Below, piece by piece: positions 60,404 through 63,776 of a stretch of 64,000 nt of DNA. The position numbers and the translations under genes were made by a program. Location of the stretch: the NCBI RefSeq assembly GCF_988243305.1, contig NZ_OZ547136.1. The stretch is one strand, 5' to 3'. Under the pieces are notes generated by a model that had not been told where the DNA came from, made no database searches, and saw only the letters and a list, made by a program, of their open reading frames with translations. Position 1 is the stretch's first letter; each line of letters starts with the position of its first letter.

Positions 60404-61348
60404 TCAATTGCGGCGTGCTGGCTCTTCCATTGATATCTGCTGGATTAAATCGTCTGGCATATGTTCCTGTAAAATACGCCAGAGGTTCTCGGCGGTTCTA
60501 TTCAGTCGGGTGTTCATTCGGTAAATATAAGCCTGAATGGGGACTGTCAATTTAGCAGCATCAAGGCATATCAGACGTTTGGTCTGTAGTTCATCGACGA
60601 TCGACCAGATCGGTAACCAGGCAATGCCGTATCCGTTGAGCGCCATATTCTTTAATAACTCGCTCATCGAAGAGATAAATATCGTGCGCCCGGTAATACC
60701 TCCAACCTCTGCCAGATGACGATTGACCAACCTGCCCATATAAGATGTGGCGGTATAGTTGAGCAAAGGAACCTGGGGCTGAGTGATATCGAATACAGGG
60801 TGCCCCTGTGCGTCGGCGGCACATACCGGGTACAACTCAGATTCAAACAGTTTCAGGCAGCAAAAAGGCGATTGCATAAGATCTTCATCGCGAAACGAAA
60901 TAATAAAGTCACTCTTGCCTTCGCGTAACGTATTTACGGCCTGGACAACATCAATGGCTTCAACATGATAGACAAATTCTCCGCCATAGGCGGTAAGTGA
61001 ATGCACCAGTTTGGGTAATACGCTCAGGGATAGTGAGTGCGCGGCTGCAATTTTAATGTTGGGAACGCCGAGTAAACTCTGGCCGTTTAACTCCCCCAAA
61101 TTGCATTCAAGCTGCTGTAATAAGCTGCGAGTCTGGGAATGAAAGAGCTTGCCCTCTTCGGTTAATTGTAAAGGGGTGGTCGTGCGATCGAATAAAACAA
61201 CGCCGATCGCTGCCTCCAGCGCCTTAATTCGTCGGCTGAATGCGGGTTGCGAAAGATTACGCTCTTTTGCCGCCTGAGAAAAATGGCGACAGGCTTCCAG
61301 TGTCAGGAAATCGTATAACCATTTTGTCTCGATATTCTTCATTACCAT
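60404..61348 (-). CDS. LysR-family transcriptional regulator
   Basis: 314-aa ORF with N-terminal LysR HTH, divergent from the racemase/transporter genes. Confidence 0.8.
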   Translation of the reverse strand: MVMKNIETKWLYDFLTLEACRHFSQAAKERNLSQPAFSRRIKALEAAIGVVLFDRTTTPLQLTEEGKLFHSQTRSLLQQLECNLGELNGQSLLGVPNIKIAAAHSLSLSVLPKLVHSLTAYGGEFVYHVEAIDVVQAVNTLREGKSDFIISFRDEDLMQSPFCCLKLFESELYPVCAADAQGHPVFDITQPQVPLLNYTATSYMGRLVNRHLAEVGGITGRTIFISSMSELLKNMALNGYGIAWLPIWSIVDELQTKRLICLDAAKLTVPIQAYIYRMNTRLNRTAENLWRILQEHMPDDLIQQISMEEPARRN

Positions 61349-61692
61349 GGCACCTGTATTTTCAATCCAAAGACATAATAAAACATCCCGGCAATAAAAA
61401 TAATGTTCTCAATTAGCACAACCTGGCCTTTATCATTCGTTTTGTGCATAACCCCTTCATTTCCGGTATTGACGTTGATATCACATTTCGCCAAAAAAAC
61501 GAAATTTTTCCGTCAGATAACCAGAATACATCATCACTATGGTGAATAAGCGGAATGTTCCATAGCTGCATCATGCGTGTCTTGCATCGCCTTGTACAAC
61601 CTTGCATTTCTCATCGCCCATTTCGACTGTTAAAAAAGAGAGCAGCAGTTATTTACCGCGTATTGTCATTAACGTTTTGAGAGGCAGGTATT

Positions 61693-62412
61693 GTGAAAGG
61701 TTTAATTGGTGTACTCGGTGGAATGGGGCCGGCAGCTACCGTCGACCTGTTTAATAAATTTGTAACTTTTACCGCTGCACAATGTGATCAGGAACATATT
61801 CCTTTAATTATTTCTTCGATCCCGGATATTCCTGACCGTACCGATGCATTAATGCATCATGGGCGTTCACCATTACCCGTTATGCGTGATTATATGCATA
61901 AGCTGGAAGATGCCGGGGCAGAATGTATTGTTATTCCCTGTAATACCGCGCATTACTGGTTCAAAGAATTAAAAGATGCTTGTCATATTGATATATTAAG
62001 TATCGTAGAAACTACGAACAATGAAGTTCGCGCCTGTGGTAAAACCCGAATTGGCTTGTTAGCCACCAATGCCACGCTATATATGGGTTTATACCAAAAA
62101 GGAATTGAGTCGCTGGGATTTACCTGTGTCAGCCCCGATGCCGACGGTCAGAAAAAAGTGATGGAAAGTATTTATTCCTTGAAAGCTGGCAATATAGCGC
62201 ACGCACAAAAGTTGATGAATGAGCAGGCTGAAATATTATTTTCCCGCGGTGCAGAAATCCTTGTTCTTGGTTGTACAGAAATTCCGGTTATTCTGGCGCA
62301 AGCCGTTAAAGAGCAGCCTTCCCGCTATATTGACTCAACGGCGTCACTCGTTCGTGCCGGAATAAAATGGTACGAAAATCGTGTCGGTAAACATTATCTT
62401 TTAACCCAATAA
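61693..62412 (+). CDS. Asp/Glu/hydantoin racemase-family protein
   Basis: 239-aa ORF with two Cys-containing motifs (IPCNTAH, LGCTE). Confidence 0.7.
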   Translation: MKGLIGVLGGMGPAATVDLFNKFVTFTAAQCDQEHIPLIISSIPDIPDRTDALMHHGRSPLPVMRDYMHKLEDAGAECIVIPCNTAHYWFKELKDACHIDILSIVETTNNEVRACGKTRIGLLATNATLYMGLYQKGIESLGFTCVSPDADGQKKVMESIYSLKAGNIAHAQKLMNEQAEILFSRGAEILVLGCTEIPVILAQAVKEQPSRYIDSTASLVRAGIKWYENRVGKHYLLTQ

Positions 62413-62477
62413 TCATTTAAATCGCAGCCAGAAAGTTATTCGCTTTTAACTGAATTATATTTATAACGGAGAACATT

Positions 62478-63776
62478 ATGGTTTGGCTGGAAATTATCGT
62501 AGTACTTGGTGCAATATTTTTTGGTATTCGCCAGGGGGGAATCGGTATTGGTTTATGTGGCGGGCTTGGGCTTGCCATTCTGACTCTGGGATTTGGTCTG
62601 CCTATGGGGTCGCCGCCAGTCGACGTGATCCTGATTATTATGACCGTTGTTGTGGCGGCCTCAGCCTTACAGGCCGCAGGCGGAATGGATTATCTGGTAC
62701 GCGTCGCTGGTAATTTTATGCGGCGTAACCCGAAATATATCAACATAATCGCGCCGATTATCACCTGGTCTATGACCATTATGGCCGGTACTGGGTTTAT
62801 TGTTTTTTCCACGCTGCCGGTGATTGCTGAAGTGGCGAAAGAGTCCGGTATCCGTCCTTCCCGCACGCTTGCCGGTTCGGTTGTCGCTTCGCAGGTTGCG
62901 ATTTCCGGTTCGCCGATCAGCGCCGCAATGGCGGCTATGCTCACTATTATGGAGGTAAACGGTGTCAGTTTTATTCAAGTGATGTCGGTATGTCTTCCCA
63001 CCTCTTTTGCTGCCGCGATGGTCGCCGCTTTTATTGCTTCCCGACAGGGATGTGAGTTGCAGGATGACGAGGTCTACCTTGAGCGCCTGCAAAAAGGACT
63101 GGTGCAAAAATACGAGAATAATAGCAGCATCAAGCCAGGTGCGACGCTCTCCGTCGGATTGTTCCTGCTGGCGACGGTCGCTATTGTTATTCTTGCTGCC
63201 TTCCCCCAACTGCGTCCGGGTTTTGATATCGGTAAACCGATGGAAACACGCGATATCATTATTATCTGTATGCTCTCTGCCGCCTGCCTGATGGTGGTGC
63301 TGTGTAAGACGGCGACCGATGCCATTATTCTCACCTCCACATTCCGTGCGGGGATGAGTTCGCTGGCGGTAATTCTCGGCATTGTAACCTTAGGCACCAC
63401 TTTTATTGATGCGCATTTAACTGAGATTAAAGATATTGCTGGTGATATTTTGCAGGCGTATCCGATGTTGTTGGCGCTGGTTCTTTTTGGCACTTGCGCG
63501 CTGCTCTACTCGCAAGGTGCGACCACGCCGTTAATTATCCCGCTTGCCGTCGCGCTTGACGTGCCCACCTGGGCAATTCTGGCGTCCTATGTGGCCGTCA
63601 CCGGAGTATTTGTACTGCCAACGTATCCAACATCACTGGCTGCCATGGAATTTGATACTACCGGCACAACTCGTGTAGGCAAATATGTGCTGAATCATCC
63701 ATTTATGCTGCCTGGGTTGGGGGGAATTATTGCTGGAGTGGCATTAGGCTTTGTGATTGCGCCAATGATTATTTAG
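62478..63776 (+). CDS. DcuA/DcuB-family anaerobic C4-dicarboxylate transporter
   Basis: 432-aa polytopic ORF with Dcu-like N-terminus. Confidence 0.75.
   Translation: MVWLEIIVVLGAIFFGIRQGGIGIGLCGGLGLAILTLGFGLPMGSPPVDVILIIMTVVVAASALQAAGGMDYLVRVAGNFMRRNPKYINIIAPIITWSMTIMAGTGFIVFSTLPVIAEVAKESGIRPSRTLAGSVVASQVAISGSPISAAMAAMLTIMEVNGVSFIQVMSVCLPTSFAAAMVAAFIASRQGCELQDDEVYLERLQKGLVQKYENNSSIKPGATLSVGLFLLATVAIVILAAFPQLRPGFDIGKPMETRDIIIICMLSAACLMVVLCKTATDAIILTSTFRAGMSSLAVILGIVTLGTTFIDAHLTEIKDIAGDILQAYPMLLALVLFGTCALLYSQGATTPLIIPLAVALDVPTWAILASYVAVTGVFVLPTYPTSLAAMEFDTTGTTRVGKYVLNHPFMLPGLGGIIAGVALGFVIAPMII

Follow-up and report, generated by a model that had tools for sequence, protein, structure and literature searches.

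The orf7-orf8-orf9 cassette of the Shigella SRL island in an accessory locus: comparison with D-aspartate, cysteate and HypT systems

Identity and setting of the cassette

The SRL pathogenicity island of Shigella flexneri 2a YSH6000 (Luck et al. 2001; PMC6980539) carries three genes, orf7, orf8 and orf9, whose products are a LysR-like regulator, the aspartate racemase AspR and DcuA. Excision of the island abolishes D-aspartate respiration and orf8-orf9 brings it back in two backgrounds; the pair restored D-aspartate use in SRL-negative S. flexneri and S. sonnei. For growth on D-aspartate and its conversion to L-aspartate, the orf8-orf9 fragment of the Shigella copy proved both necessary and sufficient (PMC6980539). 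HPLC-MS/MS revealed the D-to-L conversion of aspartate with other D-amino acids unchanged, the racemisation being read out indirectly in culture supernatants, and some L-aspartate built up outside the cells, so that efflux occurs (PMC6980539). The complementing fragment lacked orf7 and was carried on the pUC18-derived plasmid pUC18G (PMC6980539). Core DcuA is an established L-aspartate/C4-dicarboxylate exchanger paired with AspA (PMC10634366; bioRxiv 10.1101/2021.03.01.433382).

The DNA analysed here, called the window throughout, is a stretch of 64,000 nucleotides from contig NZ_OZ547136.1 that carries the following features near its right end:

60368..60386, no strand assigned: GC-rich hairpin of 8 pairs between the regulator stop codon and an IS200/IS605 tnpA gene (terminator scan)
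60404..61348, minus strand: orf7, LysR-type regulator of the HypT/YjiE subfamily (314 aa, six-frame ORF list)
61548..63976, plus strand: equivalent of the cloned orf8-orf9 fragment, delimited by the cloning primers at 61548-61568 (plus) and 63953-63976 (minus), 0 mismatches
61693..62412, plus strand: orf8, Asp/Glu-type racemase (239 aa, GTG start, six-frame ORF list)
62478..63776, plus strand: orf9, DcuA-family transporter (432 aa, six-frame ORF list)
63815..63891, plus strand: long imperfect hairpin 3' of the transporter gene (fold -32.5 kcal/mol, z = -3.65)

An earlier note on this DNA had assigned the three open reading frames to the same coordinates and gene families, in agreement with the ORF list, Pfam and NCBIfam, and its order of divergent regulator, racemase and transporter is confirmed in the ORF list. 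The matches to these families far exceed what chance would give, and each protein scores above the curated cut-off of its NCBIfam model (407.6 bits for the regulator, 247.5 for the racemase and 582.1 for the transporter). The divergent regulator and racemase genes are separated by a spacer of 344 bp, while the racemase and transporter genes have the same orientation with 65 bp between them, a gap in which no terminator was predicted. The hairpin at 60368..60386 is terminator-like in both strand directions; that at 63815..63891 has no U-tract and is thus not a canonical terminator.

The nearby IS cluster that the note described is present, with the IS200/IS605 tnpA gene (59765-60286) adjoining the regulator gene on its left and IS4, IS3-family and IS21 elements further left. 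The window ends 224 bp past orf9, and in identical E. coli loci a remnant of IS600 is seen just beyond this point. Of 5,426 complete E. coli genomes, about 348 contain the module at an identity of at least 99%. The cassette is an accessory unit, as the note had suspected, and is flanked by IS elements within a genomic island; no tRNA gene marking the island attachment site was found within the window.

Each of the four primers that Henriquez et al. 2020 (PMC6980539) published matches the window without mismatch, and their order and orientation are as expected, with the orf8 forward primer at 61723 and the orf9 forward primer at 62478-62495. Sequence identity with the tested Shigella fragment is judged on these primer matches, 80 nt in all. 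Public databases also list the exact transporter sequence, and the regulator in its 314-aa form, under Shigella flexneri names. By these matches, the locus is identified as orf7-orf8-orf9 of the Shigella SRL island, which is already published, and the substrate of the cassette, D-aspartate, is already known from the literature on Shigella DNA (PMC6980539). The left arms of the SRL island and of the window contain the same gene types (integrase, YfjI-like and Gp2-like), whereas only the window has some 30 kb of other cargo between the left arm and the cassette, including malX, alpha-galactosidase, fucP/rbsK and several IS elements.

The earlier note proposed that an amino or dicarboxylic acid is taken up and racemised, which agrees with what the same genes do in Shigella, namely D-aspartate uptake and racemisation (PMC6980539; primers matched). 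The note had held that orthology to a characterised core locus with a known substrate would speak against it. The locus is indeed characterised and its substrate known, but it is the SRL-island cassette and not a core locus, and the interpretation stands. Very probably, the locus is a mobile cassette for the utilisation and detoxification of D-aspartate, first described on the S. flexneri SRL island. As this function was published in 2020, the main finding itself is not new; what the present analysis adds is an aspartase in a variant form of the module, the contexts of distant relatives, problems of naming and an operator-like element.

Racemase and transporter

The racemase belongs to Pfam PF01177 (Asp_Glu_race, 1.6e-43), and its gene is preceded by a ribosome-binding site, GAGAGG, at 61679-61684. 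The start is placed at GTG 61693 and not at the internal ATG 61723, since the first 13 residues are conserved, including the invariant I5, G6, L8, G9 and G10. The closest solved structures are 3S7Z (1.5e-75), deposited as a putative aspartate racemase, and 1JFL (7.9e-49), deposited as an aspartate racemase, the chain of which we take to be the Pyrococcus horikoshii enzyme. In an alignment that includes both PDB chains, Cys83 (PCNTAH), Cys194 (GCTE), Arg49 and Lys164 are invariant, a pattern that identifies orf8 as a putative PLP-independent two-cysteine aspartate racemase. Arg48 and Lys164 of the Pyrococcus enzyme are presumably the residues that bind the side-chain carboxylate; the equivalent R49 and K164 would also suit a sulfonate and so do not separate aspartate from cysteate.

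The NCBI pipeline names the enzyme 'cysteate racemase' in many genomes, and several RefSeq genomes carry the name cuyB. If this naming were correct, the cassette would take up L-cysteate, which arises by oxidation of cysteine and closely resembles aspartate in structure, and turn it into D-cysteate. A D-cysteate sulfo-lyase or an enzyme of the D-cysteine desulfhydrase type, encoded elsewhere in the genome, would then cleave this product. The racemase scores 247.5 bits on the equivalog model NF052483 'racemase_CuyB' (cut-off 190), and the characterised Bilophila CuyB is likewise a member of PF01177. However, the same model gives 233.9 bits to the 1JFL chain cut down to 203 residues, deposited as an aspartate racemase, and 225-252 bits to every relative tested; it does not discriminate cysteate from aspartate racemases. 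The coupled substrate-specificity assay of CuyB covered only L-cysteate, L-cysteine and L-serine, aspartate not being included (PMC11193023), and BwCuyB (UniProt E5Y345) is not among the best 120 homologues of the racemase. A gene for a PLP-dependent lyase of PF00291 is absent from all 11 racemase neighbourhoods examined, while aspartase is present in three of the 11, and identical genes give a D-aspartate phenotype (PMC6980539). The cysteate reading is therefore considered very unlikely, and cysteate racemisation as the primary function was rejected because 1JFL passes the same HMM and the sulfo-lyase occurs in none of the 11 neighbourhoods. Some aspartate racemases may accept cysteate, although a literature search for such activity found no supporting paper.

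The transporter matches Pfam PF03605 (DcuA_DcuB, 2.3e-134) and, over residues 1-431, NF006927 with 582 bits; its ribosome-binding site is GGAG at 62468-62471. It is 49.3% identical to K-12 DcuA, as against 92.6%, 84.7% and 68.5% to the transporters of the Citrobacter, Providencia and Bibersteinia modules, respectively. Core dcuA, which adjoins aspA in K-12, is present as a separate locus beside the module in some genomes. These relationships argue that orf9 is a paralog of core DcuA, not its orthologue. It is presumed to be a carrier of D- and L-aspartate. The published construct from which it was concluded that orf8 alone does not complement (PMC6980539) begins at Met11 (61723), with ten conserved N-terminal residues missing; this single-gene control thus relied on an N-terminally truncated racemase, and the evidence that the transporter is required is weaker than the paper presents it.

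Regulator and intergenic element

The regulator contains the Pfam domains HTH_1 (6e-19) and LysR_substrate (1.5e-22). Its true start is likely the second methionine at 61342, which gives 312 aa, because orthologues and the NCBI annotation begin there. It matches the DsdC model weakly (54.5 bits) and the NCBIfam HypT equivalog model with 407.6 bits against a cut-off of 301, and a solved chain, 5YDW, shares about 60% identity with it; this chain was deposited under the name 'cell density-dependent motility repressor', which we take to be an alias of HypT (QseD). In E. coli HypT, Met123, Met206 and Met230 are reportedly the activating residues, as described by Drazic et al. in 2013. The island regulator retains two of these three HOCl-sensing methionines.

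If orf7 were HypT itself, as the RefSeq name 'hypochlorite stress regulator HypT' has it, the cassette would belong to an oxidative-stress regulon, with methionine oxidation and not a small-molecule substrate as its trigger. Passing the equivalog model, the similarity to 5YDW and the presence of Met206 and Met230 equivalents favour this view. Several observations oppose it. HypT (YjiE/QseD) and orf7 belong to the same LysR subfamily, but orf7 is only 58% identical to K-12 HypT, compared with 82.5% to the regulator of the Citrobacter module. The core hypT gene, about 64% identical in nucleotide sequence, is kept in 5,387 of 5,426 genomes beside iadA, downstream of yjiH-yjiG-iadA, so that the island copy is a second gene with a different synteny. 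Met123 is missing in the whole orf7 clade, which has a 3-residue insertion at this position; Met206 and Met230 are invariant across the whole subfamily and may be structural. The regulator also co-diverges with the racemase and the transporter. Finally, the HypT model is passed by every racemase-linked LysR protein tested in other taxa (Enterobacterales and two metagenome-derived relatives) and is in practice a subfamily model. Hence, it is improbable that orf7 is genuine HypT, and its sequence points instead to a paralog of this hypochlorite sensor.

The core HypT gene adjoins the isoaspartyl dipeptidase gene iadA and, in Citrobacter amalonaticus, a second aspartate racemase. A broader proposal, which we regard as unlikely, is that HypT-family LysR proteins as a whole regulate the metabolism of aspartate or damaged aspartate and are not dedicated hypochlorite sensors. 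Were it true, orf7 would sense D-aspartate or integrate D-aspartate with oxidative stress, and the HypT phenotype in the literature would reflect one part of a wider D-Asp/isoAsp salvage response.

Two elements stand out in the spacer between the regulator and racemase genes:

61573..61611, plus strand: candidate operator/promoter element of 39 bp, ATGC-N7-GCAT-N14-TTGCATTTCT, conserved across genera
61445..61449, plus strand: third invariant TGCAT, in ATTCGTTTTrTGCATAAC (six-genus intergenic alignment)

The first 15 bp of the candidate operator (61573-61587) form a T-N11-A dyad of the LysR type, and the second half-site begins 20 bp after the first. The spacing of the composite element is the same in E. 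coli variants A (the window form) and B, Citrobacter, Providencia and Proteus. Its core, TGCAT-N14-TTGCAT, occurs in one copy per locus in eight taxa, 70-190 nt upstream of the racemase start in the loci where position was compared, and once in the window against 0.16 expected. The ATGC-N7-GCAT dyad by itself is not enriched (three in the window against 2.25 expected); as it is not rare, only the conserved position and spacing count as evidence. The element lies within the published complementing fragment. A scan of the spacer with the sigma-70 consensus found no convincing promoter. The TGCAT at 61445..61449, which lies some 100 nt upstream of the regulator gene, may serve in autoregulation. 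With an N-terminal HTH, a LysR substrate domain, divergent orientation and a T-N11-A dyad, orf7 and the spacer show the LysR-type pattern, and we infer that the LysR protein controls orf8-orf9.

Relatives, proposed pathway and known systems

A second form of the module in E. coli, variant B (e.g. NCTC11476), was found in 222 genomes and is 85.6% identical to that of the window in nucleotide sequence. The same three genes occur in the same order, with protein identities of 79.6% for the regulator, 88.3% for the racemase and 94.7% for the transporter, and the operator element is shared. Variant B differs in its location on another island, beside dgo genes, and in having its own aspartate ammonia-lyase gene, the product of which is 55% identical to AspA, directly after the transporter gene. 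No aspartase is encoded in variant A, which would depend on host AspA. Homology of the window to variant B and Citrobacter stops at the transporter stop codon in the downstream alignment; IS-mediated loss of the aspartase from variant A was considered, and this end point fits either way.

Beyond E. coli, the regulator-racemase-transporter trio is kept in Citrobacter, Providencia, Proteus and Bibersteinia, where its flanks differ, and the three proteins diverge in parallel across the taxa compared. A relative in Campylobacteraceae (52% identical) has the arrangement aspA-dcuA-racemase-asparaginase, and one in a metagenome-assembled genome has a LysR gene divergent from racemase-frdCAB-aspA-dcuA.

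In the proposed pathway, for which we infer the transporter substrate and mode, the AspA route and everything on the regulator, the DcuA-like carrier orf9 would import D-aspartate, and probably L-aspartate too. The racemase orf8 would interconvert D- and L-aspartate through the catalytic Cys83 and Cys194, and host AspA and aminotransferase would drain L-aspartate to fumarate and ammonium, or to oxaloacetate. Since L-aspartate would be drained by host enzymes, D-aspartate is proposed to become a carbon and nitrogen source and its toxicity to end. The HypT-family regulator orf7 most likely binds the ATGC-N7-GCAT dyad and the downstream half-site (61573-61611) and would turn on orf8-orf9 when an effector is sensed, the obvious candidate being aspartate.

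The same proteins could in principle work in the opposite direction, producing D-aspartate from L-aspartate and exporting it to modify the cell wall or to signal to nearby cells or the host. Racemases are reversible, carriers of the DcuA type act as exchangers, and some Gram-positive bacteria use D-aspartate racemases to supply peptidoglycan cross-bridges; to our knowledge, however, the peptidoglycan of E. coli and Shigella contains no D-aspartate. The published assay shows L-aspartate efflux, but the published phenotype is D-aspartate consumption and growth (PMC6980539), and the genes linked in relatives (aspartase, asparaginase and fumarate reductase) are catabolic. Production for export is thus extremely improbable, and the utilisation cassette remains the preferred reading.

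With the cassette, Shigella and roughly a tenth of the complete E. coli genomes would gain access to D-aspartate, a compound that occurs both in the gut and in the environment and is toxic for strains lacking the cassette. The cassette can be regarded as a minor niche-fitness trait that pathogenicity islands carry. The RefSeq names 'cysteate racemase CuyB' and 'hypochlorite stress regulator HypT' are unsupported here and will spread the wrong function. The regulator, its inducer and the conserved candidate operator together form an easy experimental target.

Among the known systems, the CuyB/CuyA cluster of Bilophila wadsworthia (PMC11193023) shares with the cassette a PF01177 racemase clustered with an acidic amino acid transporter; its PLP-dependent D-cysteate sulfo-lyase, RidA and SDF-family transporter have no counterpart next to the racemase clade of the window in the neighbourhoods examined. 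The core aspA-dcuA locus of E. coli shares the transporter family and the pairing of a DcuA carrier with aspartate metabolism, but lacks both racemase and LysR regulator. A parallel in organisation is dsdCXA, for D-serine use in E. coli, in which a divergent LysR regulator is likewise combined with a transporter and a single enzyme that renders a D-amino acid both usable and harmless. Like the cassette, dsdCXA is variably present among pathogenic E. coli, yet its proteins are unrelated, with a GntP-type permease and a PLP-dependent deaminase in place of the DcuA-type carrier and the racemase.

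Gene content and genomic setting of the module

The three open reading frames claimed by the earlier note agree exactly with the six-frame ORF list. Their assignment to the LysR, Asp/Glu racemase and DcuA families is borne out by Pfam (E-values of 1e-19 to 1e-134 for the three proteins) and by NCBIfam, whose curated cut-offs all three exceed:

60404-61348, minus strand: orf7, regulator, 314 aa (HTH_1 and LysR_substrate)
61693-62412, plus strand: orf8, racemase, 239 aa, GTG start (Asp_Glu_race)
62478-63776, plus strand: orf9, transporter, 432 aa (DcuA_DcuB)

The strands and the 344-bp spacer separating orf7 from orf8 confirm the order of divergent regulator, racemase and transporter. 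orf8 and orf9 are 65 bp apart, each preceded by a Shine-Dalgarno sequence, and no terminator was predicted in the gap. A long, imperfect hairpin (63815-63891; -32.5 kcal/mol, z = -3.65) begins 40 bp past the orf9 stop codon; it has no U-tract, and the DNA that holds it is absent from Citrobacter and from a second E. coli form of the module, variant B. The final ~10 codons of the regulator (60404-60440) differ from those of the Citrobacter and Providencia orthologues and make the protein longer (…DDLIQQISMEEPARRN). The conserved cassette therefore seems to have its left edge within the 3' end of orf7, beside an IS200 copy; the LysR domains are complete.

Core chromosome of E. coli type (agp, the rut operon, putA, putP, efeUOB and phoH) makes up the first ~21.7 kb of the window. 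A tyrosine integrase gene (22130-23332) comes next, with a mosaic genomic island whose cargo includes malX, an alpha-galactosidase gene, fucP/rbsK and IS21, IS4, IS3-family and IS200 elements. Many complete E. coli genomes have islands that match this DNA at 99.9-100% identity. As proposed earlier, the module is accessory, being present at >=99% identity in ~348 of 5,426 complete E. coli genomes, and it does lie beside IS elements, with an IS200/IS605 tnpA bounding it on the left and, at the loci of other E. coli that are identical to it, an IS600 remnant ~240 bp past the transporter. The best match to the core part (1-21700) among the same genomes is only ~97.5%, against 99.9-100% to many of them for the island part (21700-64000); the host lineage thus seems poorly sampled and the island widely shared.

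Several further features of the island were observed. A ~1.31-kb IS3-family element is present in two copies (38165-39473 and 58133-59442), each with orfA/orfB and an Rfam ALIL frameshift pseudoknot; both are missing from the island of strain 3090, which otherwise matches at 99.98-99.99% identity, and the second splits an IS4 transposase gene, truncating it at 377 aa (57028-58161). The integrase end of the island (21692-23656) adjoins phoH and a DUF2726 gene in the window and in strain EC-107, and ycdU instead in strain EC2; on this side the pga-ycdU segment has been either rearranged or lost. No tRNA gene was found in the 64-kb window. Four Rfam matches at gathering score all lie outside the module:

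20237-20430: Ysr251
54195-54262: tRNA-like, a marginal 30.7 bits, beside the IS21 element; ARAGORN calls none
56724-56938: STnc100
59696-59819: STnc490, the IS200 5' leader, directly upstream of tnpA

Identity with the published D-aspartate cassette

In S. flexneri 2a YSH6000, spontaneous excision of the SRL pathogenicity island abolishes D-aspartate respiration on Phenotype MicroArrays and does not affect other D-amino acids (PMC6980539). The island carries a LysR-like regulator (orf7), a racemase (orf8) and a 'DcuA' (orf9); in S. flexneri and S. sonnei alike, an orf8-orf9 plasmid restores D-aspartate metabolism, allows growth with D-aspartate as the only carbon source and, by HPLC-MS/MS, brings back D-to-L conversion, and neither orf8 nor orf9 is sufficient singly (PMC6980539). 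All four primers of that study match the window with zero mismatches:

61548-61568 (plus) and 63953-63976 (minus): cloning primer pair
61723-61739: orf8 forward primer
62478-62495: orf9 forward primer

In public protein databases, the exact transporter sequence of the window and the regulator in its 314-aa form also go under Shigella flexneri names, and 'AspR-DcuA' appears among the SRL-island cargo in a 2020 review. Together with the primer matches, these identify the module as the published D-aspartate cassette; neither the locus nor its substrate is new. The earlier suggestion of uptake and racemisation of an amino or dicarboxylic acid is therefore supported by the growth and D-to-L conversion that the SRL cassette restores (PMC6980539). 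Since the reverse primer site lies just past the hairpin, the sequence beyond the latter is common to the SRL island.

The published failure of orf8 alone bears on whether the transporter is required. GAGAGG precedes the GTG at 61693, and the residues that follow include I5, G6, L8, G9 and G10, invariant in a nine-sequence alignment, which places the racemase start at this codon. The 'orf8 alone' construct begins at an internal ATG (Met11) and is without the ten conserved N-terminal residues, including these five, so its non-complementation is weak evidence for a transporter requirement and may reflect an inactive enzyme instead. Cys83 (PCNTAH), Cys194 (GCTE), Arg49 and Lys164 are also invariant in this alignment. 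The nearest solved structures are 3S7Z, deposited as a putative aspartate racemase and presumably a Salmonella protein, and 1JFL, deposited as an aspartate racemase and, we take it, the Pyrococcus horikoshii enzyme.

Annotated names and a candidate operator

RefSeq names the racemase variously 'cuyB cysteate racemase', 'aspartate/glutamate racemase family protein' and 'amino acid racemase'. The cuyB name, given in many NCBI-annotated genomes, stems from the protein's score of 247.5 bits on NF052483, the CuyB 'equivalog' model, which has a cut-off of 190. However, the aspartate racemase 1JFL passes as well (233.9 bits, with a truncated sequence), as do all relatives tested (225-252 bits); the model cannot separate aspartate from cysteate racemases, and the name is no evidence of function. 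The cysteate name has probably been over-propagated. The orf8 racemase may act on cysteate in a side reaction. Bilophila CuyB, which in a coupled substrate-specificity assay was examined with L-cysteate, L-cysteine and L-serine only, is encoded beside a D-cysteate sulfo-lyase, RidA and an SDF-family transporter (PMC11193023). A CuyA-type PLP-dependent lyase was found in none of the 11 gene neighbourhoods examined.

The regulator likewise passes the NCBI HypT equivalog model and is annotated hypT. That it is HypT itself was rejected, as it is 58% identical to K-12 HypT and a separate core hypT keeps its place beside iadA-yjiG-yjiH (5,387 of 5,426 genomes, ~64% nucleotide identity); it is a HypT paralog. 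Equivalents of Met206 and Met230, which we take to be two of the three methionines activating HypT on oxidation, are invariant across both clades in the alignment, and Met123 is absent from the entire orf7 clade, in which three residues are inserted at that point. The model is passed, at 378-484 bits, by every LysR regulator tested beside the racemase clade (window and loci L006, L008, L019 and L020; the tally covers tested regulators only). Core hypT adjoins iadA, the isoaspartyl dipeptidase gene, and the true hypT-iadA cluster of Citrobacter amalonaticus is bordered by a second aspartate racemase. The HypT subfamily may be linked generally to aspartate racemases or aspartate metabolism, which we offer as a lead only. 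Both annotation problems, CuyB and HypT, are worth flagging.

Alignment of the divergent spacers of six taxa revealed invariant islands in otherwise unalignable AT-rich DNA:

61445: further invariant TGCAT, closer to the regulator gene
61573-61611: main conserved element, ATGC-N7-GCAT-N14-TTGCATTTCT

The main element, which lies within the published complementing fragment, has the same spacing in both E. coli variants, Citrobacter, Providencia and Proteus, and is partial in Bibersteinia. A T-N11-A dyad of the kind usual at LysR-type regulator sites makes up its first 15 bp; the dyad pattern by itself is not rare, so the weight rests on positional conservation. The core TGCAT-N14-TTGCAT occurs exactly once per locus in eight taxa, Edwardsiella and the L019 contig among them, 70-190 nt upstream of the racemase start where position was compared. 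The whole 64-kb window has one occurrence, where 0.16 would be expected. From this conservation we infer a candidate operator that Orf7 would bind.

Distribution, proposed mechanism and comparison with known systems

Variant B is 85.6% identical in nucleotides to the window across the racemase-transporter stretch. In strain NCTC11476 it lies in a different island, beside dgoRKAD (L008:7762-12700), and an aspartate ammonia-lyase gene directly follows the transporter; its product scores 680.8 bits on the aspartase subfamily model and shares 55% identity with AspA. This four-gene form is present in 222 complete E. coli genomes, and no description of it was found in the literature. The trio keeps its order and orientation in four other genera with unrelated flanks, and its three proteins diverge in parallel.

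Identities of module proteins (racemase, transporter, regulator)
E. coli variant B: 88.3%, 94.7%, 79.6%
Citrobacter freundii: 83.7%, 92.6%, 82.5%
Providencia: 71.1%, 84.7%, 75.5%
Proteus: 65.2%, 82.9%, 73.8%
Bibersteinia: 54.8%, 68.5%, 63.3%

Racemases of 52-55% identity are found in a Campylobacteraceae genome (aspA-dcuA-racemase-asparaginase), a metagenome-assembled genome (LysR<->racemase-frdCAB-aspA-dcuA) and a further contig (racemase-dcuA-LysR). Comparative genomics thus gives independent support for aspartate as the substrate.

Cells with the cassette convert external D-aspartate to L-aspartate and can grow on the D-form, the racemase-plus-transporter DNA being sufficient (PMC6980539). 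From protein families and gene context, Orf9 would import D/L-aspartate, possibly in exchange for a C4-dicarboxylate, and Orf8 would racemise it by a two-cysteine mechanism. Host AspA or AspC would pull the equilibrium, a role for which variant B may supply its own aspartase, and Orf7 would activate transcription at the conserved operator in response to an effector, for which aspartate is the most plausible candidate. Core DcuA, which interacts with AspA, has an established role as an L-aspartate/C4-dicarboxylate exchanger (PMC10634366; bioRxiv 10.1101/2021.03.01.433382); the island transporter is a paralog, 49% identical to it.
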